DNA of 64,000 nt, from IMG/VR virus record IMGVR_UViG_3300046777_002520, positions 96,001 through 160,000 of that record. One strand, 5' to 3'. The notes below the pieces were generated by a model. The model made no database searches and was not told where the DNA came from. It saw only the letters and a program-made list of their open reading frames with translations. How positions within the stretch are numbered: the first letter of the stretch is position 1; every line of letters starts with the position of its first letter. The position numbers were made by a program, and so were the translations under genes. Shown piece after piece: positions 1,792 through 24,113 of this stretch. This DNA comes from a virus.

Positions 1792-4700
1792 CTAGAACTC
1801 GCAGGCTCCACCCACACAGGCGTATGTCTGTGAACCCGTGGTCATGTCGTCGGACTCATACCGCACCAGCTTGGACCAATCGATCTCAGGCAGCGCAGCC
1901 AGTCTCTTTCGGTATTCTTCCTCGGTGATCTCCTCGTAGGGAGTACCAGTGTAAGTACCGTTATCGCGAGGCAGAAAGCTGACGCCACTAACCTCATCGA
2001 AATGCTTGTGGACCCAGAGACCAGCTTCAAACCACTCAGTCTCCTCCACATAAATTGTGGCAGACACTGAGTGCTCTGCGAAATGCTTCTTCCACACGAG
2101 CCAGTTGTCCAGCTGATCGATTGCCGTCTGATCATGGCGGGTCAAAGCTCCTTCTGGTGCCTTCCTTGGAAACTCGAAACAGACAAGCGACGGATCTTCA
2201 GGCGCAACCATCCACGGCACTCCCTGGTCCATGAGCATACGGGCAACAGGGCTGTCCTTGCGTTCACGCACACGTCGAATGAAGTACTTGCCGAACCAGG
2301 CGTGAATACCTGAACCGCAGTTGAAGAACTGCGAGCTGTCACCAGACGGTTTAACGCAGGTGTCGGCAGCGGCTCGGTTGATGCCTATCTTTTTCGCCCA
2401 CTCTTCATTCGTAGCTGCAACGACTGCCTTGAGATCTTCAAGGAGCTTCTCGCGGCCCTCGGCACCTGGACGGAGTAGAGGACAGTCCATCTGTCCTGTG
2501 ATGTCCACTCCGAGCAGTGCTTCCTCCTCACAGTTCTCGTGCCAAGTCGGGCGAATGTACTTAAAGTTCGTGCAGCTCGCCTGAAGAGTACCGAAAATAG
2601 TCGCAACACGGATCTTCTCCTTGAGGGTCTCGGGAGTGTCGTCAGGACGAGCGATGACAATCGTCAGATTGCAGAACTCATGGGGACGAAGAATGATCTC
2701 AGCGCAGTTGCCAGCAACGACACCGTTGGCGATGACATTGTGAGTCTCTGGCTGGTTCAGGCAGTACACATCAGAAATTCCTTCTTCCGCGACGCTTTTC
2801 ACAGTTGTGACGTAATCATCGTCGGAGGGCTCGATGTTGCCCATTTCCATCATGTTGTCCAGCATGGAGCCAGAAACACCGCCCATACCCACCACTTCCA
2901 TAAACCTGCCACACTGCCCCTGACTGATGGTCAGAGCGTAGCGCTCATGGTCGTTGTAGTTCTTCCGCTCGTCAATGACGGGCACGGAAGAGTCGGGCTT
3001 ACGCACGACCTTGCGCACACGGCTGACGACACCGAAGTTGGACAGCAGCATCTGGGTTTCCAGAAGCAGCCTGTGACTGGTGCTCTCCAGCACGAGGTTT
3101 ACCTCGGAGCCAGAGCCGCTGGCACGCACCACGCGACCAGCTGAGCTGAACAGCCCAGCCAGGTATCCAGCCACCATGCCACGGCAGCCCTGCATCACGG
3201 ACTCAGGCACCAGGTACTTCAGGTCCACGACGCTGTCCACGCCAGCAAAGCTCTGGATCTTGCTGTTGTACAGCGAGCCAGACGCCTTGGCCGTCTTGGT
3301 GCTCTTGAACCGCAGCTTGGCCTTGATACCACCGCTGGTGGTGCGGCTGACAAGAGCCCTCTTGCAGTCAGCAGCCATCTGCTGGTTCTGATAGCCCTCC
3401 ATGAACTTGTCGGAGTCCAGGAGAACACGGTGGCCTTCGCGCACCACCTCGCCAGAGCCAGCAGCCACGCCGAGATTCAGACCCTCACCAAAGCTGCCGT
3501 ACTGCCCGAAGAAGCCCTCGTCGGACTGCAGCATCAGCTTCATGCCAGGCTTCAGGTCCTTAAGCTGCTTGCGTCCCTTGTCGGTGGGGAACTCATGGTT
3601 CTCGGTGCAGACGATCTCCTGCCCGTGAGCCGTGGTCAGCTTGTAGACCTTGGCGTTCTGCTGCGTCATCTCAACCTGAGTCGCCATGCGCAGGCTGACG
3701 CCCATGCTCTTCGACTTCAGCGTGTCGCGCCCGTCCACGGTTACCCTGTTGATGGGCTTACCAGCCGTGTACAGATCACCGATGCGCACCAGACCCTCGT
3801 CGGTGTGAATGCGCGTGTCAGGGTGGAAGCAGGGGTTGGTGCCGAACTTGGCCTTCTTTCGGCGCTTGGGCAGCATCTTCATGACGCCCTCGCGATTGAA
3901 GATGCCACGCTCGCCAGAACCGCTCTTGGCCAGGCTCAGCCACTCTTCCATGAAGACCGTGTCGCTGGGCTTGCTGTTGAACACGGCCGAGTTGTTGGCC
4001 ATCGAGCGATAGACATGGTTCTGCCACCACGGGCCGCTCTTGGCCTCACGCATCTCGTTGCTGTTGAGGTCGGACAGCGAGATAAGCGCTGCACGGCGCA
4101 CGCCACCCACCTGCACGATCTTGCCCACCATGCAGGCCAGGTCGTGGCAGTCCAGCTCGGTGAAGTACTTGCCCTGACGCTTGAGGATCAGGTCTCTGGC
4201 AAACTTCAGCAGGTCCTTGAGGGGCTCAGGCCCACAGGACCTGCCACCTTTGGTCTTGAGCTTGGCACCAGCAGGACGAATCTTGCTGAAGTCGAACTCG
4301 ACGTCCGAGCCGTCGAACCAGGTCTCCAGCCCCAGCTTTAGGGCGTCGCACCAGCCCTCGGTGGAGTCGTCGATGACGTGGGTTGGCAGCATCGTGCCTG
4401 TCTGCCTCTTGACGCGAGGCAGATGCTCGATGTTGTCGGCCTCGACGGAGAAGCCTGCGCCTGTGCCCTGCATGAGGATGTAGAGCAGCTCGACGAACGA
4501 GAACAGGTCCTTGATGGGCAGGTAGGAGCAGTTGAAGACACCGACGTTGCAGCGATCCAGGGGAGGCCCAGCCATCTGGATGACACGCATCGCGGGGCTG
4601 GCCTTCAGGTTGTAGAGGTACTGGTACAGCTCGTCCCACTGTTCCTTGGGCACGTTCTTGAGCCTGGGCTGCTTCTTGAACCAGCCCATCACACGCTCGC

Positions 4701-5190
4701 AGACCTCCTGCCAGGTCTCACGGCGCTTGGCGTTCTCGTTCCAGCGTGCAAACTTGGTGATCAGCTGGAAGTATTGGATAGGCTCGCCAAAGTGTTTGGC
4801 ATCAGCTGATATCATGTCCTTAATATTCTGGTCAATAGGCTCCAGCTCACGAGCCTTGCGTCGCTCTTCCTTATAGAGCGTGTAGTGCGTGGCAACGCGA
4901 TCCATGTTGTCGATCCAGAACTGCTGGATCACATACTTCTGAACATCGTCCACAGGAACTGGGTTTACGTTGGTCTTAACGATAAGACTGCAGACGGCCT
5001 TTGTGACCTTGTCCACATACTTCTCTGTTTCCTCGTCCTGAGGCCAGTCTCCACCATTGATCAAAGCTCGTCGAACAGCGCTCTGAATCTTGCTGACTTT
5101 GAAGTCTTCAGACCTGCCTCCACGCTTTAAAACCTTGAATTTGGATTCGAGTTTACCGATAATGTCCTTAGCGCGAGTATTCCCACTCAT
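1792..5190 (-). CDS. nrdJ: Class II (B12-dependent) ribonucleotide reductase with N-terminal ATP cone and intein
   Basis: ATP cone (KRGGRSEDFKVSKI), RRETWQEVCERV, SPAMR, NCSY, GTGAGFS, split active-site loop TNP|C...N|CAEI, TCVKPSG, C-terminal ACVGGAC; no nrdB in the window. Confidence 0.92.
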   Translation of the reverse strand: MSGNTRAKDIIGKLESKFKVLKRGGRSEDFKVSKIQSAVRRALINGGDWPQDEETEKYVDKVTKAVCSLIVKTNVNPVPVDDVQKYVIQQFWIDNMDRVATHYTLYKEERRKARELEPIDQNIKDMISADAKHFGEPIQYFQLITKFARWNENAKRRETWQEVCERVMGWFKKQPRLKNVPKEQWDELYQYLYNLKASPAMRVIQMAGPPLDRCNVGVFNCSYLPIKDLFSFVELLYILMQGTGAGFSVEADNIEHLPRVKRQTGTMLPTHVIDDSTEGWCDALKLGLETWFDGSDVEFDFSKIRPAGAKLKTKGGRSCGPEPLKDLLKFARDLILKRQGKYFTELDCHDLACMVGKIVQVGGVRRAALISLSDLNSNEMREAKSGPWWQNHVYRSMANNSAVFNSKPSDTVFMEEWLSLAKSGSGERGIFNREGVMKMLPKRRKKAKFGTNPCFHPDTRIHTDEGLVRIGDLYTAGKPINRVTVDGRDTLKSKSMGVSLRMATQVEMTQQNAKVYKLTTAHGQEIVCTENHEFPTDKGRKQLKDLKPGMKLMLQSDEGFFGQYGSFGEGLNLGVAAGSGEVVREGHRVLLDSDKFMEGYQNQQMAADCKRALVSRTTSGGIKAKLRFKSTKTAKASGSLYNSKIQSFAGVDSVVDLKYLVPESVMQGCRGMVAGYLAGLFSSAGRVVRASGSGSEVNLVLESTSHRLLLETQMLLSNFGVVSRVRKVVRKPDSSVPVIDERKNYNDHERYALTISQGQCGRFMEVVGMGGVSGSMLDNMMEMGNIEPSDDDYVTTVKSVAEEGISDVYCLNQPETHNVIANGVVAGNCAEIILRPHEFCNLTIVIARPDDTPETLKEKIRVATIFGTLQASCTNFKYIRPTWHENCEEEALLGVDITGQMDCPLLRPGAEGREKLLEDLKAVVAATNEEWAKKIGINRAAADTCVKPSGDSSQFFNCGSGIHAWFGKYFIRRVRERKDSPVARMLMDQGVPWMVAPEDPSLVCFEFPRKAPEGALTRHDQTAIDQLDNWLVWKKHFAEHSVSATIYVEETEWFEAGLWVHKHFDEVSGVSFLPRDNGTYTGTPYEEITEEEYRKRLAALPEIDWSKLVRYESDDMTTGSQTYACVGGACEF
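2707..3831 (-). mobile_element. Intein (375 aa) with degenerate LAGLIDADG endonuclease
   Basis: Begins CFHPDTRIHT (Cys454) and ends HNVIANGVVAGN, followed by the +1 Cys. Block B LTTAHGQEIVCTENHEF; LAGLIDADG-like YLAGLFSSAG. Confidence 0.92.
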
Positions 5191-9220: not shown

Positions 9221-10075
9221 ATGAACGAAGCTCAAAGTAATGCACTCAAGTATACTCTGACTGCTGGGCTGCTGAGCGCTTTGGGCGGTGGCGGTCTGGC
9301 CTATCTGGCCAACAAGGTCCAGAAGACAGACCCCGAGACTCTGGAAGACCTCAACACCACTTCTCCTGATCTTGTCGAGATTCCCTATCCGATAGTTAAA
9401 AAGAAAAAGCCCCAAGGGGCTCTGCCAGCCCCCAAGCTCGCCTCGCTCAAGGGCTTTCTGGGCGGTGAGAACGCCGAGTCGTGGCATGAGGTGCCCTGGG
9501 CTCCTGTCGCCTTGGTTGGTGGCACGGCCCTGGGTGGTCTGGGCGCTTACAAGCTTATCGACAACATGATGAAGAAGAAGCGCAAGGAAGGCATGAAGGA
9601 CCAGCTCGCTGCTGCCGAAGAAGAGTACAAGAAAACTCTGCTCAACAGCTACGACCCCAGCCGACTGAAGCTGATCAAGTCCTCCAAAGCCCAGGAGATC
9701 AACGAGGGGCTGGAGAAGCTAGCTTCCCTGCTGAAGATCAGCGAGGAGGAGAACCTGGCTGACAAACTGGTCGCAGGCAAGGCTCCTCCCCCGTCAGCTG
9801 CCGAGAAGGCTTACGCTGCTGGCAGCTCGGCTGCTAAGACGCTGGGCCACAACCTAGGCGTTCCCGACACGAAAAACATGCCAAGCTGGACAGGCATTCC
9901 TGTTGGCTTGGCTGCGCTGGCTGGCGTCACCATTCCCCTCGCCTCAGGCTACGCGGCTTACAAGTACTTCAAGAAGCGCAACAAGTCCAACCTGGTGAAC
10001 GAAGCCGCCAAGGCCCGTGCCCTGGAGCGACTGGGTGAGAATGTGCCAGCGCCTTACGCTGCCATCGAGGACTAA
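9221..10075 (+). CDS. Glycine-zipper / membrane-like protein with K-x-A motifs
   Basis: Three Gly/Ala hydrophobic helices, each followed by basic clusters; KLAS occurs twice. Confidence 0.8.
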   Translation: MNEAQSNALKYTLTAGLLSALGGGGLAYLANKVQKTDPETLEDLNTTSPDLVEIPYPIVKKKKPQGALPAPKLASLKGFLGGENAESWHEVPWAPVALVGGTALGGLGAYKLIDNMMKKKRKEGMKDQLAAAEEEYKKTLLNSYDPSRLKLIKSSKAQEINEGLEKLASLLKISEEENLADKLVAGKAPPPSAAEKAYAAGSSAAKTLGHNLGVPDTKNMPSWTGIPVGLAALAGVTIPLASGYAAYKYFKKRNKSNLVNEAAKARALERLGENVPAPYAAIED

Positions 10076-10090
10076 GATCGGGGTTTAGCG

Positions 10091-13000
10091 ATGCCCTCCG
10101 TACTAGACAACGACCTTCCCGAGCAGCCGATCCTCCCGTCAGGACCGGCTGCAACGCCATTGGTACCACCTCCAGCAGGTGTGATGGCTCCTGTGCTGCC
10201 CAAGCCCCAGCCAGAGCCCATGCGCGGCTTTGCCGACATCGACAAGACGCGTCAGGCGATCTATGACGGTGTGCTGGAAGCTGCCAGAGGACTGCCTGAG
10301 TTCTCCAACAACAAGTACAAGCTGCGGCTCGCTGACGTCAACTATGTGGACAGCGACAAGCCCACCATCGCTGAGCGCAAGAAGGCCATTCTGCGCTCGG
10401 AGACATTGGACAGACGACTGCAGGGCACCTGGCAGCTGACCGACCACGAGGGCAACCTGGTCGATGAGCGCAAGGTAACGATGGCGCGCATTCCCAAGCT
10501 GACCAACGGCGGCACGTTTGTGCTGAACGGCGTCGAGTACACGCTCGCCAACCAGGCCCGTCTGCGCCCAGGTGTCTTCACGCGCCAGAAGCAGAACGGC
10601 GAGATCGAGAGCCATGTCAACGTGATGCCTGGCAGAGGCGTCTCCCACCGCTACACGCTGGACCCAGAGAAGGGCACCTTCAAGCTGACCCTTGGTCAAG
10701 CTAACCTGCCCCTCTTTCCTATCCTCAAGGCGCTTGGAGCCACAGACTCCCAGATTCGCGGCGTCTGGGGCAACGAGCTGTACGAGCAGAACGCCAAGCA
10801 GAATGACCCTCAGGCCGTGGACAAGCTGGCCCAGAGGCTGCTGAAGAAGTCCGACATGACGCTGGAGTCTGAAGGCAGGCTCAACAGGCTTCGGGAAGTC
10901 TTCAACAAGATGGAGCTGGACGACACCGTCACGTCCAGAACATTGGGTAAGCCCTATAAGAATCTCTCCGTGGACGCGATTCTCGACTCCACGCGCAAGA
11001 TTCTGGCCGTGCAGCGCAGGGAAGCCGAAGCCGACGACCGTGACGCCATGGCGTATCAGATGGTGTACGGCCCTGAGGACTTCTTCGCTGAGAAGATGCG
11101 CTCAGCCTACAAGGTGATGAATCCGCTGCTGTGGAAGTCCACCTTTAAGAACAACCTCAGCCCTCTTGCCTCCAACTTTCTGGGCAAGCACCTGAACTCG
11201 GCCATTCTGAACTCAGGTTTGGGCCAGCCCTCTGAGGAAGTGAACAACGCTGAGATTCTTGGCCAGCTGACACGCATGAGCCGACTGGGTGAAGGTGGCA
11301 TTCCCTCGCTGGACGCTGTGCCAGACGAGGCTCGCTCCGTGCAGCCGTCCCACTTCGGCTACGTGGACCCGCTGCTGACACCAGAGTCCCTGAAGGTGGG
11401 TGTGGACAGCCGTTTAGCGATGGCGAGCCAGAAGGGCAAGGACGGCAAGATCTACACGAAGTTTCTTAACGTTAAGACTGGAGAGCCTGAGTGGCGCACG
11501 CCTCAGGACGTGGCCGACTCGGTCATCGCGTTTCCCAAGGAGATGGACAATCCCAACGCCAAGACCGTAGCCGCCCTGGTGTCGGGCAAGATCAAGTATG
11601 TGCCCAGGGAGTCCGTGGAGCTGACGCTGCCCCACATGGAGGACTCGTTCAATCCTCTGGTCAACATGATTCCGCTGAAGTCCACCATCAAGGGCCAGCG
11701 CGTGATGATGGGCGCGAGAATGCTGACGCAGGCTCTGCCCCTCAGGGACGCTGAGGCTCCTCTGGTGCAGTCAGGAGTTCCAGGCGACGCGGACGAGTCG
11801 TTTGAGGAGCGCTACGGCAAGTACATGGGCGCGATTCGCTCCGATGTGGAAGGACAGGTCGTCAAGGTGACAGCTGACGAGATTCACGTCAAAGGCCCAG
11901 ACGGCAGAATCCAGACGCACGAGCTGCACAACAACCTGCCCTACAACCGCAAGACCTACCTGCACAACAGCCCCGTGGTGAAGGTGGGCGACATGGTCGG
12001 CAAGGACAGCCTGCTCGCCAAGTCCAACTTCACCAACGACAAGGGGGCTACGGCGCTGGGCCTGAACCTGCGCACGGCCTATATCCCCTACAAGGGCTAC
12101 AACTTTGAAGACGCCACGGTCATCTCCGAGTCAGCAGCCAAGAGGCTGTCCTCGGAGCATATGTACCAGCATGACGTGGAGTTTGACGACAAGACGAAGG
12201 TGAACAAGAAGCACTTCATCTCCATGTATCCGTCCACGTTTGACAGGCAGACGCTGGACAACATCGACGATGATGGCGTCATCAAGCCTGGCACGGTGGT
12301 GAACTCTGGCACTCCGCTCATTCTGCAGGTGCAGGAGAAGGAGCGCGCCCACAACCAGATCACGCGTGGCAGGTCGCCCCTGCACTCGGACTCCTCGGTC
12401 CTCTGGGAGCACCATGACCCAGGCGTCGTCACGGACGTCGAGAAGACCAAGAAGGGCGTCGTGGTGACGGTTAAGAGCTACGCCCAGATGCAGGTGGGTG
12501 ACAAGCTGTCAGGCCGCTACGGCGACAAGGGCGTCATCGCTGACATCGTGCCAGACGACAAGATGCCCAAGGACAGCGAGGGCAGGCCCTTTGAGGTCCT
12601 GGTGAACCCTCTGGGCATCATCACCAGAACCAACCCTGGCCAGATGGTCGAGGCCGTGCTGGGCAAAATTGCCGAGAAGACTGGCAAGCGCTACGCCGTC
12701 AAGGACTTCGACAAGATTCAGGACATGACCGAGTTCGCCAAGGAGGAGCTGCGCAAGCACGGCCTCAGCGACACCGAGGACATCGAGGACCCTGAGATCA
12801 ACCAGAAGATCAAGGGCGTCTTCACGGGCAACCGCTTCTTCATGAAGCTGCACCACATGGCCGAGAGCAAGGGCTCTGGCCGTGGTCTGGGTTCCTACAC
12901 GGCAGAGGAGTCTCCTGCCCGTGGTGGTCCGATGGGCAGCAAGAGAGTCTCGCTGGCTGACAACAACGCGCTGCTGTCCCACGGTGCACTGGAGGTGCTG

Positions 13001-14551
13001 ACGGACGCTGGAGCCATTCGTGGCCAGAAGAACCAGGACTACTGGGCAGCGTTCATGTCGGGCAGAACGCCTCCGCAGCCCCGTGTTCCCCTCGTCTACA
13101 ACAAGTTCTTCGAGCAGCTGCGCTCCGCTGGCATCAATCCCGTGCGCAACGGGCCGCGTGTGCAGATCATGGCGCTGACTGGCAAGGACATCGACAACCT
13201 GGCCGAGGGCAGGGAGATTCAGTCGGCCGAGACGGTGGACTGGAAGGAAGGCCTCAAGCCCATCAAGGGCGGTCTCTTTGACGAGACTCTCACAGGGGGA
13301 CACAACGGCAATCGCTGGAGCTACATCAAGCTGCACGAGCCGATGCCCAGCCCCATCATGGAAGAGCCGATTCGCAGAGTGCTCGGCCTGACGCAGCAGA
13401 AGTTCATGGACGTGCTGGGAGGCAAGGAGAAGCTGGGCGAGGAGACAGGCCCAGAGGCCATCGGCAACGCCCTGAAGCGCATCAACCTGCCAGAGGCCGT
13501 CAAGAGAGCCGAAACCGAGTGGCGCAACAGCAAGCGCTCCACCAAGGACGCGGCCCTGAAGCGCTGGGCGCTGCTGAAGCACACCGAGAAGCTCGGCCTG
13601 CATCCCAGCGAATGGATGCTGGACAAGATTCCCGTGCTGCCTCCAGCGTTTCGTCCCGTCTCCGTCATGGGGGCGAGCGGTAAGCCGTTGGTGTCAGATC
13701 CCAACTATCTCTACAAGGAAGCCTTTGACGCCAACCAGGCGCTGAAGGAGACCGCCAGCTTCTCGAAGGAGCTGGCCGACGAGCGCACAGCCCTCTACAA
13801 GGCGTTCAAGGGCGTCACAGGGCTGGGTGATCCCGTCACGCCCAAGAACCAGGAGAGCAACGTCAAGGGTGTGCTGAAGTACATCTTTGGCGACAATCCC
13901 AAGTTCTCCGTCATGCAGCGCAAGCTGCTTTCCACCACGGTGGACGTGGTCGGCAGAGGCGTCATCTCGCCCAATCCTAATCTCGACATGGACCAGGTCG
14001 GACTGCCTGAGACCAAGGCCTGGGAGATCTACAGGCCGTTCGTCATTCGCAGGCTGGCTCGCAGGGGCATACCAGCCCTAAGAGCTGCCGAGATGGTCGA
14101 GAAGAAGGAGAAGATCGCCAAGGACGCGCTGCAGCAGGAGCTGGACGAGCGTCCTGTCATCATCACGCGCGCTCCCGTGCTGCATCGCTACGGTGTCATG
14201 GCGTTCAAGCCGCAGCTGGTCAAGGCTGAGACGCTGCAGATTCCTCCAGCCATCGTCAAGGGCTTCGGCGCAGACTTCGACGGCGACACGATGAACTACC
14301 ACGTGCCTGTCTCCGAAGGGGCCGTCAAGGACGCTCTGGAGAAGATGCTGCCCAGCAAGAACCTGCTCAGCACCAAGACCTTTCGAGCGCATCAGCTGCC
14401 CCAGAACGAATACCAAGGCGGTCTATACCACGCTACAGCGTTCGTGTCTAATAAACCTGAAAGGTATTTCGCTACAAAAGCTGATGCCATAAAGGCTTAC
14501 AGAAGTGGTGAGATAGGCCCAGACCAGAAGGTGGTCATACTGAACCAGTAA
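10091..14551 (+). CDS. rpoB/rpoC: Multisubunit RNA polymerase: beta fused to the N-terminal half of beta'
   Basis: Beta motifs GGTFVLNG, RLGEGG...HFGYVDP..TPE, GYNFED, GDKLSGRYGDKG, MKLHHM. In frame these continue into beta' motifs GGLFD, PVLPPAFRP, RAPVLHR and the catalytic ADFDGD (14267-14287). Confidence 0.95.
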   Translation: MPSVLDNDLPEQPILPSGPAATPLVPPPAGVMAPVLPKPQPEPMRGFADIDKTRQAIYDGVLEAARGLPEFSNNKYKLRLADVNYVDSDKPTIAERKKAILRSETLDRRLQGTWQLTDHEGNLVDERKVTMARIPKLTNGGTFVLNGVEYTLANQARLRPGVFTRQKQNGEIESHVNVMPGRGVSHRYTLDPEKGTFKLTLGQANLPLFPILKALGATDSQIRGVWGNELYEQNAKQNDPQAVDKLAQRLLKKSDMTLESEGRLNRLREVFNKMELDDTVTSRTLGKPYKNLSVDAILDSTRKILAVQRREAEADDRDAMAYQMVYGPEDFFAEKMRSAYKVMNPLLWKSTFKNNLSPLASNFLGKHLNSAILNSGLGQPSEEVNNAEILGQLTRMSRLGEGGIPSLDAVPDEARSVQPSHFGYVDPLLTPESLKVGVDSRLAMASQKGKDGKIYTKFLNVKTGEPEWRTPQDVADSVIAFPKEMDNPNAKTVAALVSGKIKYVPRESVELTLPHMEDSFNPLVNMIPLKSTIKGQRVMMGARMLTQALPLRDAEAPLVQSGVPGDADESFEERYGKYMGAIRSDVEGQVVKVTADEIHVKGPDGRIQTHELHNNLPYNRKTYLHNSPVVKVGDMVGKDSLLAKSNFTNDKGATALGLNLRTAYIPYKGYNFEDATVISESAAKRLSSEHMYQHDVEFDDKTKVNKKHFISMYPSTFDRQTLDNIDDDGVIKPGTVVNSGTPLILQVQEKERAHNQITRGRSPLHSDSSVLWEHHDPGVVTDVEKTKKGVVVTVKSYAQMQVGDKLSGRYGDKGVIADIVPDDKMPKDSEGRPFEVLVNPLGIITRTNPGQMVEAVLGKIAEKTGKRYAVKDFDKIQDMTEFAKEELRKHGLSDTEDIEDPEINQKIKGVFTGNRFFMKLHHMAESKGSGRGLGSYTAEESPARGGPMGSKRVSLADNNALLSHGALEVLTDAGAIRGQKNQDYWAAFMSGRTPPQPRVPLVYNKFFEQLRSAGINPVRNGPRVQIMALTGKDIDNLAEGREIQSAETVDWKEGLKPIKGGLFDETLTGGHNGNRWSYIKLHEPMPSPIMEEPIRRVLGLTQQKFMDVLGGKEKLGEETGPEAIGNALKRINLPEAVKRAETEWRNSKRSTKDAALKRWALLKHTEKLGLHPSEWMLDKIPVLPPAFRPVSVMGASGKPLVSDPNYLYKEAFDANQALKETASFSKELADERTALYKAFKGVTGLGDPVTPKNQESNVKGVLKYIFGDNPKFSVMQRKLLSTTVDVVGRGVISPNPNLDMDQVGLPETKAWEIYRPFVIRRLARRGIPALRAAEMVEKKEKIAKDALQQELDERPVIITRAPVLHRYGVMAFKPQLVKAETLQIPPAIVKGFGADFDGDTMNYHVPVSEGAVKDALEKMLPSKNLLSTKTFRAHQLPQNEYQGGLYHATAFVSNKPERYFATKADAIKAYRSGEIGPDQKVVILNQ

Positions 14552-14571
14552 AAATGCTGAACAAGCGTAGG

Positions 14572-14590
14572 TTATGCGGACTTCGCATAA
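14572..14590. promoter_or_regulatory. Intergenic hairpin
   Basis: TTATGCG-gactt-CGCATAA just after the RNAP stop. Confidence 0.4.
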
Positions 14591-14611
14591 ATACTGTGAG
14601 GTTTACCTGCT

Positions 14612-15706
14612 ATGTCCGATGAAGCTATCAAGCAGGCGAATAGAATGGCGCTGCTCAACGCCCTGCGTGGTGGGGCTACGGCTGCAGCCAGCAACGCTGC
14701 CAAAGCCTCGGTTCGTCCCCAGGTCACCTCAGCGCTGACTCAGGCGATGGCCAACACGGGCAAGTCGCTGTCCGAGCGCTCTGGTCTGTCCCAGTTTGCC
14801 CGTAATGAGGTTGTGCGTCCGTTCAGGCTGGGCGCAGGTCAGGCTGCTGCAGGAGACCGCTATCTGCAGGGTCTGGGCACAGCCACGCCAGCCCTCAGGC
14901 AGCAGGCAGCAGCCAAACTGCTCAATCTCACCGACAGGTCGGCGCGACTGGGTGGGGACACGCTGGCCACGGCTGGCAACTTCCTGGGCAAGAGCCTGCC
15001 CGAGGTCAACAAGGGTGTCGGCCAGTTTGTCCGCACGCTGCCCAACCTGCTGAATAACCCCATAAACCGCCTGCCTGGCTTCAACAAGCTGACCGATCTG
15101 CTGCAGTCCCTCAAGGGCAGACTGCCCAAGGCCATACGCTGGGCGCTGCCTGGCACTACGACTGGAGCGCTGTCAGCAGGCGTGCTGGGTCATTCGCTGG
15201 CCAGCACAGGCAAGCAGGTCGGTGAGATCTACAACGATTCAGTGCAGCCCATGATCGACAAGGCCAAGCTGCTCACCGAGGCTCCAGACGCCAGCAGCAA
15301 GATGCAGCAGGTCTATGACGCCTCAGGCAGGGCGCTCAAAGGCGTCACCACGGCCCTGACAGGCCCTGCTGTCACCAACTTCGTGGAAGGCGTGGCCAAT
15401 CTGCCTGCTGTCAACGCAGCCAAGCAGAAAGCCACCAGAGTGGCTGGCAACATTGGCACCAATGCTCTGACAGGACTGGCCAACGACTTGTCCTACAACG
15501 TTGGCACAGGCCTGTTCAGAAACACGCCCATCAAACTGATGGCCAACGCCTCTCCAGCCATGGCTGCTGCCCACAGCGCGTTCAACTACTTCAATCCTGG
15601 CGCTCAGAGACTCAGCACCGAAGAGCTGAAGAAGCGCTTAGCCTCCAGAACACTCGGTTCGATCAAAGATGAGTTTACTGGTATGCTACCGTGGTCGAGT
15701 AGGTGA
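14612..15706 (+). CDS. Ala/Gly-rich helical protein, putative internal virion protein
   Basis: 364 aa; N-terminal EAIKQA motif. Confidence 0.75.
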   Translation: MSDEAIKQANRMALLNALRGGATAAASNAAKASVRPQVTSALTQAMANTGKSLSERSGLSQFARNEVVRPFRLGAGQAAAGDRYLQGLGTATPALRQQAAAKLLNLTDRSARLGGDTLATAGNFLGKSLPEVNKGVGQFVRTLPNLLNNPINRLPGFNKLTDLLQSLKGRLPKAIRWALPGTTTGALSAGVLGHSLASTGKQVGEIYNDSVQPMIDKAKLLTEAPDASSKMQQVYDASGRALKGVTTALTGPAVTNFVEGVANLPAVNAAKQKATRVAGNIGTNALTGLANDLSYNVGTGLFRNTPIKLMANASPAMAAAHSAFNYFNPGAQRLSTEELKKRLASRTLGSIKDEFTGMLPWSSR

Positions 15707-15738
15707 TAAACTGATAGTTACCCACAAGGAGTACTGAT

Positions 15739-16518
15739 ATGCCTCTGAATCCCATTCTCATTCAGCAAGTCAAGCAAGCGATGGCGGCTAAGCGCGCCTT
15801 TGTGCCTCCTGGTGGTGGCGCTCCTCCTGGGGGCGACCCTGCGGCGATGGGTGCGGCTGGAGGCGCTCCCCCCATGGACCCTTCGATGATGGGTGCAGCA
15901 GGTGGGGCACCTCCTATGGACCCAGCCATGATGGCTGCAATGGGCGGTGGCGGTGCTCCTCCTATGGACCCGAGCATGATGGGCGGTGCGCCTCCCATGG
16001 ACCCTGCGATGATGGGTGGGGCACCTCCTATGGACCCAGCCATGATGGGCGGCGCTCCTCCGATGGACCCAGCAGCCATGGGTGCAGCCCCTCCTGCGCC
16101 TCCTGCTCCTAGCGCGGCTCCCTCCGAGGAGATCAAGGCGCTGATTCAGGCCGAGATTCAGAAGGCCATGTCGGGTGGCGGCAGCTCAGGTGGCGAGGCC
16201 AAGCCCAAGAGCAAGGGCGCTGGCAAGGTCGATCCCAGCCAGATGATCGAGTACATGGAGCGCCAGCAGAAGCTGCTGATCAACCTGTACGAGAGCCTGG
16301 GTCTCAACCTGCCCTACGACATTCTCGACAAGCCCAAGCCCGAAGGTGGCGATGAGGCCAAGCAGGAGGAAGCTCCCAAGGAGCAGCAGAGCGACACCAA
16401 CGTCTCTGGCATTCCTCCCATCAAGCCGATTGACCCCATTGGTGGCAAGCAGGCCAGCATTCGAGAGAAGGCCGCAGCAGCCCGTTACCTGCTGGCTGCG
16501 CTGAACAAGAAAGGCTGA
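15739..16518 (+). CDS. Pro/Met/Gly repeat protein
   Basis: AAGGAG SD; AAKRAF leader; about six GGAPPMDPxMM units. Confidence 0.8.
   Translation: MPLNPILIQQVKQAMAAKRAFVPPGGGAPPGGDPAAMGAAGGAPPMDPSMMGAAGGAPPMDPAMMAAMGGGGAPPMDPSMMGGAPPMDPAMMGGAPPMDPAMMGGAPPMDPAAMGAAPPAPPAPSAAPSEEIKALIQAEIQKAMSGGGSSGGEAKPKSKGAGKVDPSQMIEYMERQQKLLINLYESLGLNLPYDILDKPKPEGGDEAKQEEAPKEQQSDTNVSGIPPIKPIDPIGGKQASIREKAAAARYLLAALNKKG
15855..16085 (+). repeat. Degenerate 33-bp coding tandem repeat (GGAPPMDPAMM)
   Basis: Units such as GGTGGGGCACCTCCTATGGACCCAGCCATGATG occur twice identically, plus four variants. Confidence 0.85.
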
Positions 16519-16521
16519 TCC

Positions 16522-16743
16522 GTGAAACTGGAGTTCGGTCAGGGCGTTCACGGCAACATGTCCGTGAGCGCCACACGCCTTGTCGTCAGGGACAACTTCA
16601 ACCAGCCGATCATGCTGGTTGTCGAGCATGACCCCCAGACGATCATGGTTTACAAGGCCAAGCCTGGAGACGACTCCCTCAAGGAGATGCTCAGCAGGAT
16701 TGGCGTAGAGCACAACCATGAGGTTCGAGAGATTCGAATATAG
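16522..16743 (+). CDS. Hypothetical protein (73 aa)
   Basis: GTG start; exactly fills the gap before the beta'-C gene. Confidence 0.7.
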   Translation: MKLEFGQGVHGNMSVSATRLVVRDNFNQPIMLVVEHDPQTIMVYKAKPGDDSLKEMLSRIGVEHNHEVREIRI

Positions 16744-16745
16744 CC

Positions 16746-18653
16746 ATGCCAACGCGCACGACCATAGGCCAGCTACTCGTCAACGAAGCTCTTCCTGAGG
16801 AGTACAGGGACTATGACCGTGTGATGGACAGCAAGACTGTCCAGAAGATCATGCAGTCCGTGGCTGACAAGAACCCTGACCAGTACAGGGATGTCCTGAA
16901 AAGGCTCTTTGACGCTGGCAGGGATGTCGCCTACAGGACGGGTGGCTTCTCGTTCGGCCTGGACTCCCTCAGGACAGCCGTAGCCTCCAAGCGCATTCGC
17001 TACGAGCTGGAGAACAAGATCAACCAGATCCAGTCCACTCCAGGTCTTGACGATAAGACTCGCAACGAGGCCATCGTCAACACGGTGCTTCAGTACCAGA
17101 AGCCCCTGGAAGACGACATCATGGCCGAGTCCAAGGCCGAGCAGAACCCTCTGGCGCTGCAGGTGCTGTCAGGCTCCAGAGGCAAGCCCTCCAACCTGAA
17201 GTCGCTGCGTGGCGGCGACCTGCTGTACACCGACCACAGGGATCGGGCCATTCCCATTCCCGTGCTGAACTCCTTCAGCTCTGGGCTGACGCCTGCCGAG
17301 TACTTCGCTGGCAGCTTCGGTGCCCGTAAGGGTGTCGTCGATACCAAGTTCTCGGTGCAGCACTCTGGCTTCTTCTCCAAGCAGCTCAACCAGCTGGGCC
17401 ACAGGCTGATCGTCACGGCCAAGGACTCCGACGACGAGGAGTTTGTCCGCGACAGGGGTATGCCTGTCGCGGTGGACGATCCCGACAACGAGGGCTCGCT
17501 GCTGGCCATTTCGGTGGCAGGCTATCCGCGCAACACGGCCCTGACGCCCAAGGTTTTGAAGGACCTGCAAGCAAAAGGTATCAAGAAGATAGCCGTGCGT
17601 AGTCCCGTGGCGTCTGGCTCTCCAGACGGAGGCCTGTATGCGCGAGATGTTGGAATTCGTGAGCGTGGGGGCTTACCTGGTGTTGGGGACTTTGTGGGCA
17701 TTGCAGCGGTGCAGGCACTCAGCGAACCAATCTCACAGGGAACCCTGAGCTCCAAGCACAGTGGTGGCGTGGCTGGCGGCAAGTCGATCTCGGGCTTCAA
17801 GGTGCTGAACCAGCTGATTCAGTCTCCAAAGCAGTCGCCCTACTGGGCCTCACACGCCCAGATGGACGGCAAGATCTCGGCCATACAGCCTGCCCCCACG
17901 GGTGGCAGCTTCGTCTACATCAAGGACATGCCCCACTACGTCAACCCAGAAGCCGCCATCAAGTACAAGGTGGGCGATGAGGTGGAAGCTGGGGACATTC
18001 TGTCCGACGGCGTGCCCAATCCTGCCGAGTTCGTCAAGCACAAGGGTCTTGGCGAAGGCAGACGGCAGTTCGTCAACGCCTTCAGGTCGTCGATGCAGGA
18101 AGCAGGCCTGGGAGCGCACCGTAGAAACATCGAGATGCTGTCACGTGGTGTCATCAACCATGTGCGCCTCAACGATGCCGTGGGCGACTATATGCCTGAT
18201 GACATCATTCCTTACGACATGTTTGAGAGAAACTGGCAGCCTAGAGCTGGCAATAAGCAGGTAGCTATCAATGCTGCCAAGGGTAAGTATCTAGAAAAGC
18301 CTATTTTGCACTACACGGTTGGTACAAGGTTAACTCCTAGCGTTATGAAGGAGCTTAACGACTTCAATATTAAAGACGTTACAGTACACGACGAACCTCC
18401 ACCGTTTGAGCCTCACTTCTTGCGTGGATTAGACAATTTACAGTATGATCCAGATTGGATGACTCGTATGTTGGGTTCCAATCTGCAGAAGTCAACGCTT
18501 AAGGCTGTCTGGTCTGGAGCCACGTCTGACGAGTCTGGTACTTCATTTGTGCCTTCTCTGGCCAAGTCTGTCGGCTTCGGGCAGGGCGGCAAGATCAAGA
18601 GCTACGACCCCAAGGAAGTAGCCAAGCCATCCAGCGACGGCGGTGTTCTATGA
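16746..18653 (+). CDS. rpoC: RNA polymerase beta' C-terminal subunit
   Basis: TTIGQ, SGSRG, bridge helix GLTPAEYFAGSFGARKGVVDT, trigger loop ALSEPISQGTLSSKHSGG, and GDILSDG. Confidence 0.93.
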   Translation: MPTRTTIGQLLVNEALPEEYRDYDRVMDSKTVQKIMQSVADKNPDQYRDVLKRLFDAGRDVAYRTGGFSFGLDSLRTAVASKRIRYELENKINQIQSTPGLDDKTRNEAIVNTVLQYQKPLEDDIMAESKAEQNPLALQVLSGSRGKPSNLKSLRGGDLLYTDHRDRAIPIPVLNSFSSGLTPAEYFAGSFGARKGVVDTKFSVQHSGFFSKQLNQLGHRLIVTAKDSDDEEFVRDRGMPVAVDDPDNEGSLLAISVAGYPRNTALTPKVLKDLQAKGIKKIAVRSPVASGSPDGGLYARDVGIRERGGLPGVGDFVGIAAVQALSEPISQGTLSSKHSGGVAGGKSISGFKVLNQLIQSPKQSPYWASHAQMDGKISAIQPAPTGGSFVYIKDMPHYVNPEAAIKYKVGDEVEAGDILSDGVPNPAEFVKHKGLGEGRRQFVNAFRSSMQEAGLGAHRRNIEMLSRGVINHVRLNDAVGDYMPDDIIPYDMFERNWQPRAGNKQVAINAAKGKYLEKPILHYTVGTRLTPSVMKELNDFNIKDVTVHDEPPPFEPHFLRGLDNLQYDPDWMTRMLGSNLQKSTLKAVWSGATSDESGTSFVPSLAKSVGFGQGGKIKSYDPKEVAKPSSDGGVL

Positions 18654-19771: not shown

Positions 19772-22210
19772 ATGACAGACATCACCAAGCTGGCTGAGCA
19801 GGCTGCTGACCAAGTTATCAGCGAGACCTCTGCCAAGAAGAAAAAGAAGAAAACCTCTCCTGCGTGGTTGCTGGCTCCTGCTGGCCTGGGAGCCGCAGCT
19901 GGGCTTGGTGGTGCTTACGCTCTGGCGTCAGACTCGCACGCTGCCAACCTAAGCAAGGCCATAGAGAACAGCAAGACGCCTCTAGGCCCAGACGAGACTC
20001 CACTCACACGTTACACGCAGACCATGAGCCAGCTGGCCAACTCCACGCCAGGTGGTGTGCCTATTGGCGAGATTTTGGCCAAGGCCCGATCTTCCGCTGA
20101 CCTGATGAAGCGAGTCGGTATCGGTGAAGCCTACGCTGCCACCACTCCTGGAGCTTTTCAAGAAGCGCGTATGCACTACGACGCTTTCAGAAAAGGCCCT
20201 ATTGCAGCGTTGTATCACATGATGCAGCCAGAAGCCAGAGGCAATACGGCCATTCCTCAGGAACTGGTGCCAGACAGACTCAAGGGAAAAGTGAACAACT
20301 ACGGCGAAGCCATGAATCCCCATTTCAGGGACGCTTGGAAGAAATTCGTCGCCAAGAAGCTGCCAGGAGCTGCTGGTTGGATCTCCCCTCTGGAGATTGA
20401 CACCAAGGTCATTCCGTACAAGGACCAGCTTGAGTTCTTCAAGGAATATGAGAACAGCATTCCAGCCGATCTCAAGGCCCTGCGCAAGAACGTTGAAGGC
20501 GGTATGGGTGAAGGCCTGGCTGGCAACACCAGAAACTATATGCCCATAGCCGAGTCTGCCCTGAAAGCTAGACAGCTGATGAAGAACGTCGGCATCACCT
20601 CGGCAGGCGCTGGCGCAGGCGGTCTGTTGGGCCACTACCTGCACGGAGCGCTGGCTGATCAGGAGAACCCCAGCACTCTGGGCTATCTGGCCTCGACGCT
20701 GGGTGGCGCAGGTCTGGGTGGAGCAGCCAGTTATTTCGGCGGTACCGAGCAGGGCAGGCAGCAGGCCTCCAACCTGATCGGCAAGCTGATGTCGATGATG
20801 CAGAAGAAGTCCGCTGCTGGCGACAAGATCGAGTCGTCCTCGGTAACAGATCCAAAAGCCAAAGACTATCTTCCCAAGCCAGGCACACAGACCTATTACG
20901 CCAACGAGGATACAGGCTACAAGACTATGCCTACTCCAGGCAGTCCTGAAGACCTGAAGATGAAACAACAGGCTCTAGGACCCGTAGGCCCAGGCGCGCC
21001 AGCTCCCGCAGCGCCTCCTGCAGCTCCTGCGCCTCAGGCTACCCAACCTGCCCCAGCTCCAGCGCCTGCTCCTGCTCCCCAGCAGGGCAACTGGCTCAGC
21101 AACCTGCCGACATCCCAGGCCCTGGTGCCTCTGGGGGGTATGGCTCTGGGTGGTCTGGTAGGCAACATGATGGGCGGTGGTGACGAGGACGAGGAACCCA
21201 GCACACTCAGAAGGCTTCTTTACACTCTGGGCGGCGTTGGCTTGGGCGGCGCTGCTGGTTACTTTGGCGGTACTTCACAAGGGAGAGAAACGATGTCCAA
21301 CGCATACAACAGCCTTTTCGGCAAGAAGCAGGCAGCAGCCAACAAGCTCAACGGTCTGCTGAGCAAGAAGGCAGCCGAGAAATGCGACTGCTGCAAGAAG
21401 ACACCCTGCCAGTGTCCTCCTGACTGCTCCTGCGGCTGCAAGCAGAAGATGGCTGCTAGCAAGCCTGGGCTGTGGGCCAACATTCACGCCAAGAAGCAGC
21501 GTGGTGAAGCGCCTGCCAAGCCTGGCGACAAGGACTATCCCGACGCCAAGAACTGGAAGAAAGTGACGGAGGAGTCCGAGAAGAAGGCTCTGTTCGGCTT
21601 TGGGGCCAAGAAGCCCAAGGGCATGACCGTAGAAGAAGCTTCCAAGCTGGTCGATCCGATGCTGATGGCCAGAGCGGCTATGCTCAACGAGCTGTTCGAG
21701 GCGTCGCAGGACCCGACAGGCAAGGCTGTGCGCAAGAAGTTCAAGAACCCCCAGTTCAGGTCCATGTTCTTTGAGGGCATGACTCCTGAGATGTATGACG
21801 CCGTGTCAGTACCTGCCGAGAAGAAGGCCTCGCCTGCCTGGCAGACCTCCGAAGGCAAGAGCGAGTCTGGCGGTCTGAACGACAAGGGCCGAGCCAGCCT
21901 CAAGGCGCAGGGACACGACATCAAGCGTCCCCAGCCTGAGGGCGGTCCCCGTAAGGACAGCTTCTGCGCCCGTATGAAGGGCATGAAGTCCAAGCTGACC
22001 TCGGAAGAGACGGCCAGAGATCCCGACAGCCGCATCAACAAGGCACTGCGCAAGTGGAAGTGCGGCAGCGCCAACGAGAAGATGGCGGCTCTGGCCGAAC
22101 TTGCAGCCAACACGCTGGGCAAGGCCATCGAAGGACCCAGGAAGGAAAAAGGATCTGGCATCAAGATCCAAATCGGCTCGGCCGCTCCCATCGCCAACTT
22201 CTTCCGCTAA
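19772..22210 (+). CDS. Modular K-x-A-punctuated polyprotein, putative internal head cargo
   Basis: 812 aa; duplicated zipper module, Cys-rich peptide, and GLWANIHAK and AWQTSEGK...FCARM modules separated by KKxA sites. Confidence 0.85.
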   Translation: MTDITKLAEQAADQVISETSAKKKKKKTSPAWLLAPAGLGAAAGLGGAYALASDSHAANLSKAIENSKTPLGPDETPLTRYTQTMSQLANSTPGGVPIGEILAKARSSADLMKRVGIGEAYAATTPGAFQEARMHYDAFRKGPIAALYHMMQPEARGNTAIPQELVPDRLKGKVNNYGEAMNPHFRDAWKKFVAKKLPGAAGWISPLEIDTKVIPYKDQLEFFKEYENSIPADLKALRKNVEGGMGEGLAGNTRNYMPIAESALKARQLMKNVGITSAGAGAGGLLGHYLHGALADQENPSTLGYLASTLGGAGLGGAASYFGGTEQGRQQASNLIGKLMSMMQKKSAAGDKIESSSVTDPKAKDYLPKPGTQTYYANEDTGYKTMPTPGSPEDLKMKQQALGPVGPGAPAPAAPPAAPAPQATQPAPAPAPAPAPQQGNWLSNLPTSQALVPLGGMALGGLVGNMMGGGDEDEEPSTLRRLLYTLGGVGLGGAAGYFGGTSQGRETMSNAYNSLFGKKQAAANKLNGLLSKKAAEKCDCCKKTPCQCPPDCSCGCKQKMAASKPGLWANIHAKKQRGEAPAKPGDKDYPDAKNWKKVTEESEKKALFGFGAKKPKGMTVEEASKLVDPMLMARAAMLNELFEASQDPTGKAVRKKFKNPQFRSMFFEGMTPEMYDAVSVPAEKKASPAWQTSEGKSESGGLNDKGRASLKAQGHDIKRPQPEGGPRKDSFCARMKGMKSKLTSEETARDPDSRINKALRKWKCGSANEKMAALAELAANTLGKAIEGPRKEKGSGIKIQIGSAAPIANFFR

Positions 22211-22634: not shown

Positions 22635-24113
22635 ATGAGCAAACCAGACCTCAACCTGGCTTTGCGCTATCTGGAGCATAAACAGGCTGCCATCAATCCC
22701 GATGTCACGCCTCAGGAACACCAACAGCGTGTGGCTGACAGGCTGTCTGGGGCCAACCCCAGGCTGCTTGTCTACCACGGTCTAGGCACGGGCAAGTCCC
22801 TTGCCTCCATTCTTGCGGCTGAGCAGGCTGGCGGCGATTATGGCATAGTCGCCCCAGCCGCTTTGCGCCAGAACTTCAACAAGGAAATCGAGAAGTTCAC
22901 GGAAGGCAGCAACCCTGAGGTGATGTCCTACACGGGTCTCGGCATGGGCAAGCAGTTTGCCAAGCAGCCAGAGACGCTGATCGTGGACGAGGCGCATAGG
23001 CTGCGCAATCCGTCTGGCAAGGCCAACAAGGCCATCGCGGACCAAGCTGCCAAAGCCAAGCGCCTGATGCTGCTGACAGGCTCACCCATCGTCAACTCGC
23101 CCACAGACCTGGCGGCTCCCATCAGCCTGCTCAACAACATCAACTTGTCTCCAGAGAAGTTTGAAGAGGACTTCATCGACTACAAGAAGGTCAACCCTGG
23201 CTTCTTCGCCAGTCTGCGTGGCGTGACGGCTGGAGAGAAGCCAGCCATCAAGAACGAGGCCAGGCTGCGCGAGCTGCTCAAGGGTAAGGTCGATTACCAG
23301 CCCAGCAAGACTCCAGAGGGCGTCTCCGTCAACGAGGAGATCGTCGATGCGCCCATGTCTGCGGACCAGGAGCGCATTCAGAACGCCATTCGCAAAAAGA
23401 TCCCTCTCAAGTTCCTGTGGAAGCTCGACAAGGAGTTCCCCCTGTCCAGAAACGAGATCACCAAGCTGAACGCTTTTCTGTCAGGCCTCAGGCAGGTGTC
23501 TCTGTCCACGCAGCCGTTTCGGGCTGACAAGGACCCCCTCAAGTCGTTCGAGCAGTCTGGTAAGCTGACCACGGCCATGAACAAGCTCAAGGACTTGCTG
23601 GCGTCTGATCCGCGTAAGAAAGCAATCATCTACTCCAACTTCGTGCAGTCAGGTCTGGACCCTTACGCTGCAGCCCTGGCCAAGGAAAAGATACCGTACG
23701 GCTACTTCCATGGCGGTATCAGCGAAGCGGATAGGAAGAAAGCTGTAGACGAGTATAATGCAGGTAAGCTCAAGGCTCTATTGATTGGACCAGCTGGTGC
23801 AGAGGGTTTAAGCACCAAGGGAACAAGTCTTATACAGCTTTTGGACCCTTACTGGAATGAGACTAGGTCTAACCAGGCACAAGGCAGGGGTTTACGCTTT
23901 GATTCCCATATAGGTTTACCTGAAGAACTTAAAGACGTTAAAGTACAGAAGTTTATCAGCAAGGGTCAGCAGCCTTCCACATTGATGCGATGGCTCGGTG
24001 CCAAACCAGTCAGGACAGGCGATGAGATGCTGCAGTCTATGGCTGCATCCAAGGAAGAGCTGAACGAGCGCTTCAAGAAGCTGCTGCAGGAAGAGGGGTC
24101 CAAGCGTGAATAA
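22635..24113 (+). CDS. SF2 (SNF2 / D6-D11-like) helicase-ATPase
   Basis: Motif I YHGLGTGKS, II DEAH, III LTGSP, IV IIYSNF, V GAEGLS, VI QAQGRGLRFDSH. Confidence 0.9.
   Translation: MSKPDLNLALRYLEHKQAAINPDVTPQEHQQRVADRLSGANPRLLVYHGLGTGKSLASILAAEQAGGDYGIVAPAALRQNFNKEIEKFTEGSNPEVMSYTGLGMGKQFAKQPETLIVDEAHRLRNPSGKANKAIADQAAKAKRLMLLTGSPIVNSPTDLAAPISLLNNINLSPEKFEEDFIDYKKVNPGFFASLRGVTAGEKPAIKNEARLRELLKGKVDYQPSKTPEGVSVNEEIVDAPMSADQERIQNAIRKKIPLKFLWKLDKEFPLSRNEITKLNAFLSGLRQVSLSTQPFRADKDPLKSFEQSGKLTTAMNKLKDLLASDPRKKAIIYSNFVQSGLDPYAAALAKEKIPYGYFHGGISEADRKKAVDEYNAGKLKALLIGPAGAEGLSTKGTSLIQLLDPYWNETRSNQAQGRGLRFDSHIGLPEELKDVKVQKFISKGQQPSTLMRWLGAKPVRTGDEMLQSMAASKEELNERFKKLLQEEGSKRE

Follow-up and report, generated by a model that had tools for sequence, protein, structure and literature searches.

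A bacteriophage RNA polymerase with beta fused to the first half of beta' and the second half of beta' encoded by a separate gene

What kind of enzyme is specified by a locus in which the beta subunit of RNA polymerase (RNAP) continues in frame into beta', and beta' then stops midway to resume in another gene? This question is raised by a 64,000-nucleotide (nt) stretch of viral DNA (the window, by which its whole length is meant) corresponding to positions 96001-160000 of the 191,966-bp IMG/VR virus record IMGVR_UViG_3300046777_002520, for which CheckV gave a completeness of 93%. The record belongs to an uncultured phage of about 190 kb that encodes a bacterial-type RNAP with beta fused to the first half of beta' and the second half of beta' present as a separate gene. 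An initial annotation, based on the sequence alone, had described both open reading frames (ORFs) with their coordinates, the beta end FEQLRSAGINP running in frame into the beta' N-terminus, a stop following the catalytic ADFDGD region, and a restart at MPTRTTIGQ about 2.2 kb further on. Pfam, BLASTP, and alignment analyses bore out the ORFs and the in-frame junction, and the stop and the restart were confirmed as well.

The fused chain (P0001, cf. Table 1) was matched by the Pfam families Rpb2_3 (residues 382-446), Rpb2_6 (residues 588-937, E = 6.9e-53), Rpb1_1 (residues 1167-1222), and Rpb1_2 (residues 1338-1417, E = 7.6e-23). In BLASTP comparisons, its beta module matched Salmonella rpoB as far as residue 1374 of 1380, i.e. 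to within six residues of the C-terminus, while its beta' part matched residues 160-540 of Salmonella rpoC. The beta module starts with a Pro-rich, variable leader of about 45 amino acids (aa), followed by the beta lobes, the double-psi beta-barrel (DPBB), and a C-terminal clamp ending in FEQLRSAGINP (residues 1007-1017, nt 13109-13141), which aligned with the extreme C-terminus of Salmonella beta (...IRSLGINIELEDE). In the multiple alignment, the beta' N-terminal sequence started at residue 1024, after VRNGPR. The chain stops 87 residues past GADFDGD (residues 1393-1399), at about residue 565 of E. coli beta', and beta'-C begins 2195 nt downstream of the end of beta'-N with MPTRTTIGQ, the equivalent of E. 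coli ...KDTTVGR. Since beta'-N and beta'-C covered positions 157-534 and 549-1062 of the rpoC model TIGR02386, respectively, almost nothing is missing at the split and the cut is clean. The N-terminal 40% of beta', with the clamp helices and the Mg-binding DPBB, resides in the first chain, and the bridge helix, trigger loop, and jaw in the second. Owing to the six-residue tether, both active-site barrels are carried by one chain at a fixed 1:1 stoichiometry. Thus composed, the catalytic core is predicted from its sequence to consist of two polypeptides and not of the cellular alpha2-beta-beta'-omega set. The beta and beta' modules matched bacterial subunits in the PDB with E values of 1e-33 to 1e-50, and they fell below the bacterial equivalog cut-offs, with 275.8 bits versus 801 for rpoB (TIGR02013), and 198 (beta'-N) and 170.4 bits (beta'-C) versus 963.5 for rpoC (TIGR02386).

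Table 1 Coordinates of the RNAP chains, their modules and motifs, and associated ORFs in the window
Feature	Position	Strand	Description and evidence
Fused chain P0001	10091-14551	+	1486 aa; beta domains, six-residue linker, beta'-N through catalytic GADFDGD
Beta module of fused chain (residues 1-1017)	10091-13141	+	Pfam Rpb2_3, Rpb2_6; BLASTP to Salmonella rpoB; motif positions
GRYGDKGV (beta DPBB)	12512-12535	+	
Linker VRNGPR	13142-13159	+	Six residues, beta C-terminus to beta' N-terminus; alignment with Salmonella rpoB/rpoC, Arash, D69, TM30, RP13
Beta'-N module (residues 1024-1486)	13160-14551	+	Pfam Rpb1_1, Rpb1_2; TIGR02386; PDB beta' and gamma chains
LTGGHNGNRW	13289-13318	+	In place of the CxC...CxxC Zn-ribbon segment
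GADFDGD	14267-14287	+	
ORF P0003	14612-15706	+	364 aa; Ala/Gly-rich, no Cys; between RNAP halves
ORF P0004	15739-16518	+	259 aa; PPMDP repeats; between RNAP halves
73-aa ORF	16522-16743	+	Immediately 5' of beta'-C; kept in relative L010
Beta'-C chain P0002	16746-18653	+	635 aa; starts MPTRTTIGQ; Pfam Rpb1_4, Rpb1_5; PDB beta' chains, E = 1e-33
Bridge helix in beta'-C	17319-17387	+	
Trigger loop in beta'-C	17721-17768	+	
SNF2-family helicase	22635-24113	+	492 aa; no Cys; ortholog of Arash virion helicase gp217 (36% identity)
Divergent sigma70-family protein	54776-55609	+	277 aa; no Cys; among tail and baseplate genes; homolog of Arash virion protein gp10

The arrangement is not confined to this record. 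Fused proteins turned up in at least 120 clusters when 5.8 billion proteins were searched; they are 1436-1554 aa long (more when inteins are present), show 54-95% identity, and come from contigs of up to 222 kb. In the gene tables of five relatives (L010, L011, L016, L020, and L022), the beta'-C gene lay on the same strand, 1.7-8 kb downstream of the fused gene, with 19 genes separating the two in L010. The deposited phage genomes found with the gene pair were four, namely Salmonella phage Arash (gp206, 1525 aa, and gp216, 606 aa) and Vibrio phages D69, D181, and D148, at about 30% identity over 99% of the length. These four share with the locus the beta-to-beta'-N fusion, the split column before TTxG, the deletion of the beta' Zn ribbon, and the replaced N of NADFDGD. 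In Arash and D69, the junction and the split fell in the same alignment columns as here, within 3 residues, and the beta/beta'-N junction was also conserved in L011, L016, and L020. The helicase lies near beta'-C, as here, and Arash has the sigma homolog. The stretch between the halves varies in gene count and strand, Arash having nine genes there, all on the other strand. In a beta' tree of 12 taxa, the window group, Arash, and D69 formed one branch (SH-aLRT 100) separate from three bacteria, Rhizobium phage TM30, Ralstonia phage RP13, and Yersinia phage YerA41. For beta', the phylogeny called for by the initial annotation delivered a single fused-RNAP clade, although the deep nodes of the tree were weak (support 18) and not resolved. 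The fusion and the split are conserved in one clade, to which Arash and the D69-like phages of Vibrio belong, and this clade is widespread, being seen in freshwater and other metagenomes. In the genome_contigs collection, a single-protein query found no relative; an alignment query found 5 loci, all of them phage contigs binned into metagenome-assembled genomes (MAGs). The clade contigs in L016, L018, and L020 (47-175 kb) were in MAGs labelled 'uncultured Aquaspirillum sp.' and 'uncultured bacterium', and one MAG bin contained two different clade members; this could be a clue to the host or simply reflect mis-binning.

How does this layout relate to the RNAPs already described? The initial annotation held that it fits none of the Helicobacter/Wolbachia, cyanobacterial, and phiKZ types, and this stood up to comparison, as the defining features of each type that were tested did not hold for the locus, and those of the mReC phages did not either. 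In Helicobacter and Wolbachia RpoBC (NF007172, NF011417), the beta C-terminus is likewise joined head-to-tail to the beta' N-terminus, but the chain of about 2850 aa contains the whole of beta', and alpha and omega are used; against the model of this fusion, our fused chain scored 347.8 bits, the cut-off being 5372. Cyanobacterial and plastid gamma (rpoC1) and beta' (rpoC2) are cut, as here, in the linker after the catalytic DPBB. However, the phage split lies just before the TTxG motif and the cyanobacterial one after it, as had also been claimed: gamma extends about 65 residues beyond this beta'-N and includes the first ~18 residues of this beta'-C, TTIGQ among them. In terms of models, beta'-N ends at position 552/619 of TIGR02387 (gamma residue ~560/624), and residue 56 of beta'-C corresponds to rpoC2 position 37 (TIGR02388). 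Moreover, gamma is not fused to beta, and alpha and omega are present.

The phiKZ/AR9-type enzymes, represented by RP13, share more with the locus: they are phage-encoded, lack alpha and omega, have beta' split after the DPBB, and show a link between SNF2 and beta'-C. These jumbo-phage RNAPs function without alpha or omega, a virion-packaged version exists, and the linker after the beta' barrel has already been noted as a cut zone in jumbo phages and cyanobacteria (PMC7598289). Nevertheless, their beta is itself split and never fused to beta'-N, whereas here it is one continuous module of 1017 residues, and they have two paralogous sets (virion and non-virion) and no sigma70-type factor, in contrast to one set plus a sigma-like ORF here. 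In RP13 itself, the Zn-ribbon cysteines are kept, the split is ~45 residues earlier, and the branch in the tree is a separate one. YerA41 has a related split form, with beta' split and beta whole. The mReC phages (Weinheimer & Aylward 2020) are Caudoviricetes of about 100-300 kb with subunits that can still be aligned to cellular ones, as here, but their beta and beta' are separate and unsplit and the Zn ribbon is kept, whereas here beta' is split and the ribbon deleted. The screen that found them was defined by separate beta and beta' of at least 800 aa and a beta' with NADxDGD (PMC7481178). The present locus falls outside this definition on account of its split beta' and of GADFDGD, which occurs throughout the clade alignment. 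The cultured Rhizobium phage TM30 (Kleczkowskaviridae) has an unsplit beta' and is comparable to mReC; a PF00562 search of the TM30 and RP13 records gave no match. The best PHROG matches of the RNAP proteins of the window were phrog_24349 and phrog_25354, full-length beta- and beta'-sized families that were likened to mReC by size. Sequence comparison thus assigns the exact cut site and the fusion to beta to the Arash/D69-like clade as its particular features.

The catalytic elements are retained in the two chains, including GADFDGD, TRAPVLHR (with the R425 equivalent), the bridge helix GARKG..., the trigger loop ...KHSGG, and the beta lysine motif GRYGDKGV. The first residue of the NADFDGD signature is replaced by G throughout the clade alignment (A1), and Arash and D69 have AADYDGD. 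The replaced asparagine is E. coli beta' N458, which is said to contact the ribose of the nucleoside triphosphate. The asparagine of NADFDGD has been called universally conserved, yet its substitution in E. coli had only modest effects (PMC7862312). According to the alignment, the beta' N-terminal zinc ribbon is deleted in the clade and kept in TM30 and RP13. Furthermore, not one cysteine occurs among the 2890 residues that make up the fused chain, beta'-C, the SNF2 helicase, and the sigma-like protein, the average content of the long ORFs of the genome being about 1.1%. Because neither RNAP chain has a cysteine, both beta' zinc sites are absent. Cysteine was also absent from 11/12 fused homologs, and Arash and D69 retain a few. 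Among other proteins of the window, P0003, P0004, and a 369-aa ORF are cysteine-free as well, while the ribonucleotide reductase has 24 cysteines, an 812-aa ORF 10, and an 818-aa ORF 7.

The genome encodes one RNAP set only, with a single Rpb2_6 locus and a single Rpb1_2 locus in 192 kb. No match to alpha (PF01000, PF01193) or omega (PF01192) was found in the whole genome, with controls positive in 14/14 genomes, so the absence noted for the window by the initial annotation extends to the entire record. A search for T7-type RNAP gave no match either, but its control was equally silent. The sole sigma of the genome is the divergent 277-aa protein, which was matched by Sigma70_r3 (29.5 bits versus a cut-off of 25.3) and has a C-terminal helix-turn-helix. 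Its residues 90-270 matched the NCBIfam SigB/F/G model at 3.4e-8, with 33.4 bits, far under the cut-off of 234, and region 2 was not detected by PF04542. Arash gp10 retrieved this ORF in tblastn (28% identity, 2.8e-11), and clade members have a conserved version of the protein, encoded on contigs that also carry fused RNAP genes. A complex model of sigma with beta'-N (residues 1023-1486) scored 0.76, the best of 3 controls scoring 0.43; the mark applied to such models is reached by 58/80 solved complexes and 2/110 mismatched pairs. Agreement between runs was at least 78% of contacts, with a predicted local distance difference test (pLDDT) value of at least 70 for the partner, and the modelled contacts joined the beta' clamp helices (residues 1190-1259) with sigma residues 51-90. 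Docking of sigma region 2 on the clamp helices is known from textbooks and solved structures, and for this reason the model shows likeness and not proof of binding.

The helicase is linked to the polymerase by gene position in Arash, where the gp217 gene adjoins that of beta'-C. An association of SNF2 with beta'-C genes is also present in phiKZ-type phages, for which a RapA-like role was proposed (PMC7824862). On 11 contigs, a single 1774-aa ORF (P0223, L022:9001-14325) combines beta'-C, a NUDIX domain, and an SNF2 helicase, the helicase part being 41% identical to the SNF2 ORF of the window. In other beta'-C homologs, the C-terminus is extended in varying ways (DUF5661, DUF4269, low-complexity tracts). 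That the long beta'-C homologs are fusions to the downstream 369-aa and 812-aa ORFs was considered and rejected, as there was no similarity. Many of these 'long' forms bear inteins, and the real extensions are variable, save for the NUDIX-SNF2 form.

Evidence on where the enzyme may act comes from Arash. In the proteome of its purified particles, Gp206 gave the most spectra of any protein (3516, compared with 1333 for the major capsid protein) at 100% coverage, and Gp216, sigma Gp10, and helicase Gp217 were likewise detected (PMC10585845). All four of these virion proteins have homologs in the present genome, in which the RNAP genes lie within a long + strand block that continues into the major head (36188-37120), sheath (41743-44433), and baseplate (56536-58188) genes. 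The authors of the Arash study proposed a role in early transcription and allowed for carry-over of abundant infection proteins (PMC10585845).

Taken together, we consider it probable that the locus encodes the two-chain core of a phage RNAP that is virion-associated, dispenses with alpha, and uses sigma. The beta/beta'-N tether would probably take over the assembly role of the alpha dimer, the phage sigma70-like protein would dock on the beta' clamp helices and confer promoter specificity, and the SNF2 helicase may act with the enzyme in a RapA-like manner. By analogy with the Arash virion proteome, this kit would be packaged in the capsid and delivered with the DNA, and would transcribe the early genes independently of host RNAP; enzyme synthesized during infection would probably keep transcribing later. 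The two-chain, alpha-independent core proposed in the initial annotation is supported by the lack of detectable alpha and omega in the genome, but 'two-chain' describes the core only, because the same kit includes the sigma70-like protein and the SNF2 helicase, and alpha-less phage RNAPs were already known (PMC7598289). More tentatively, the kit may even be self-sufficient, that is, a zinc- and cysteine-free two-chain core with its own sigma70-type factor and SNF2 motor, packed in the capsid and passed through the tail. If so, it would be the smallest known sigma-dependent holoenzyme of a cellular-type RNAP, with the beta/beta' tether serving in place of an assembly platform made by the alpha dimer. 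Its lack of metal sites would then be an adaptation to being unfolded and refolded on ejection. Several points weigh against a virion-associated, alpha-less, sigma-using enzyme: (i) the Arash proteome also includes ribonucleotide reductases, primase, and kinases (PMC10585845); (ii) virion packaging is known only for Arash, a relative that is ~30% identical, and its transfer to this phage is by analogy; (iii) the sequences appear compatible with the use of host alpha or omega; (iv) with a record completeness of 93%, a gene may have been missed; (v) the sigma-like protein could serve the phage enzyme or redirect host RNAP; and (vi) a scan of the 9-19 kb region for sigma70-type promoters and terminators gave the same counts as shuffled sequence.

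Could the unusual gene boundaries be only apparent? The initial annotation had itself named a sequencing error as a possible explanation, and an assembly or sequencing artefact would turn a lost stop codon into a fusion, or a frameshift into a split. The same boundaries, however, recurred in at least 120 independent clusters and in the finished genomes of cultured phages, and nothing was found in favour of an artefact; sequencing error is thereby excluded as the cause, and we regard the chance of any such artefact as negligible. A different possibility is that RNA splicing or a split intein rejoins the beta' halves into one giant, Helicobacter-like beta-beta' chain. Mobile elements do reside in these genes: in Vibrio phage D181, a group I intron (RF00028, 100.7 bits, L021:5078-5358) followed by a homing endonuclease ORF lies inside the fused gene, D69 being without it, and inteins or LAGLIDADG domains were present in many homologs of the RNAP chains. 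Nonetheless, the 2.2-kb spacer between the halves gave no match to an Rfam intron model and holds conserved protein-coding ORFs, the end of beta'-N and the start of beta'-C are without intein blocks or a junction nucleophile, and the halves are far apart in both Arash and L010. Since the spacer has no intron match and that of Arash consists of nine opposite-strand genes, the split is taken as genuine, and rejoining as highly improbable. The invasion of these genes by introns and inteins instead offers a plausible route to gene fission.

Two further alternatives accept the gene structure and differ in how the enzyme is used. It might be an intracellular RNAP for middle or late genes, like the non-virion RNAP of phiKZ, its detection in Arash particles being carry-over. 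Such carry-over was raised by the Arash authors themselves, many metabolic enzymes occur in their particle proteome (PMC10585845), and with a single RNAP set the enzyme must in any event be produced and act within the cell should late genes rely on it. We nevertheless find this unlikely in view of the Gp206 spectra, which exceeded those of the major capsid protein at full coverage, and of the position of the RNAP genes within the structural gene block. In addition, the whole kit is free of cysteine and the metabolic enzymes are not, a difference whose meaning is itself inferential. Alternatively, the phage chains might not be self-sufficient and would assemble on host alpha2 (and omega) into a hybrid enzyme. 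No phage alpha or omega was found, and the modules are nearer to bacterial subunits than those of phiKZ-type enzymes usually are, both of which would suit a hybrid. Against it, jumbo-phage RNAPs need neither alpha nor omega for activity (PMC7598289), the beta/beta' tether offers another way of assembling the core, the enzyme is far diverged from that of any host (170-276 bits against curated cut-offs of 801-964), and cultured members of the clade infect both Enterobacteria and Vibrio. A hybrid is therefore rated as quite unlikely.

To our knowledge, every cellular RNAP is assembled on a platform of the alpha type and retains two zinc sites, and phage enzymes that dispense with both would reveal what is truly essential. 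Phage multisubunit RNAPs with non-cellular subunit boundaries are known, whereas the layout of a fused beta/beta'-N with a separate beta'-C seems not to have been described. No account of the fusion was found in the papers on Arash, on the mReC phages (supplement included), and on Vibrio phages, in two jumbo-phage reviews, or through targeted literature searches. The genes were already public in GenBank, where their labels are just beta and beta' or hypothetical, and the study of Arash annotates beta and beta' without remark on the fusion (PMC10585845). The published phage RNAP screen probably missed the clade because it required an unsplit beta' with NADxDGD. Compared with the four- or five-piece phiKZ enzymes, the clade is simpler, having two chains that can be aligned to bacterial beta/beta' and apparently being paired with a recognizable sigma; these properties should make it tractable for reconstitution and cryo-EM, and since a cultured member (Arash) grows on a laboratory Salmonella strain, the predictions can be put to the test directly. 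The region following the beta' barrel also emerges as a recurrent fission zone, as each of the three groups (cyanobacteria, phiKZ-type phages, and the present clade) has its cut at a different residue of this linker.

The remaining observations concern the surroundings of the RNAP genes. Between the halves, P0003 had no family match and was not conserved in L010, L011, Arash, or D69, and the C-terminal part of P0004 is kept directly upstream of beta'-C in L010. A 284-aa ORF (9221-10075) stops 16 nt short of the RNAP start and has three Gly-zipper/transmembrane-like segments. Its position is filled by an ORF in the relatives, the family changing much faster than the RNAP, and no Pfam or PHROG match was obtained. 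It was considered as an alpha-like partner and rejected in light of the transmembrane-like segments, fast evolution, 13 homologs, and atlas scores of at most 0.83. Just past beta'-C, the C-terminus of the 812-aa ORF (19772-22210) matched DUF6321 and many small PHROG families of unknown function; from its sequence, this ORF looks like a multi-module (polyvalent-type) protein. Finally, the ribonucleotide reductase large subunit (1792-5190, - strand), which has an ATP-cone and a class II-like insertion domain, bears an intein with a LAGLIDADG endonuclease.

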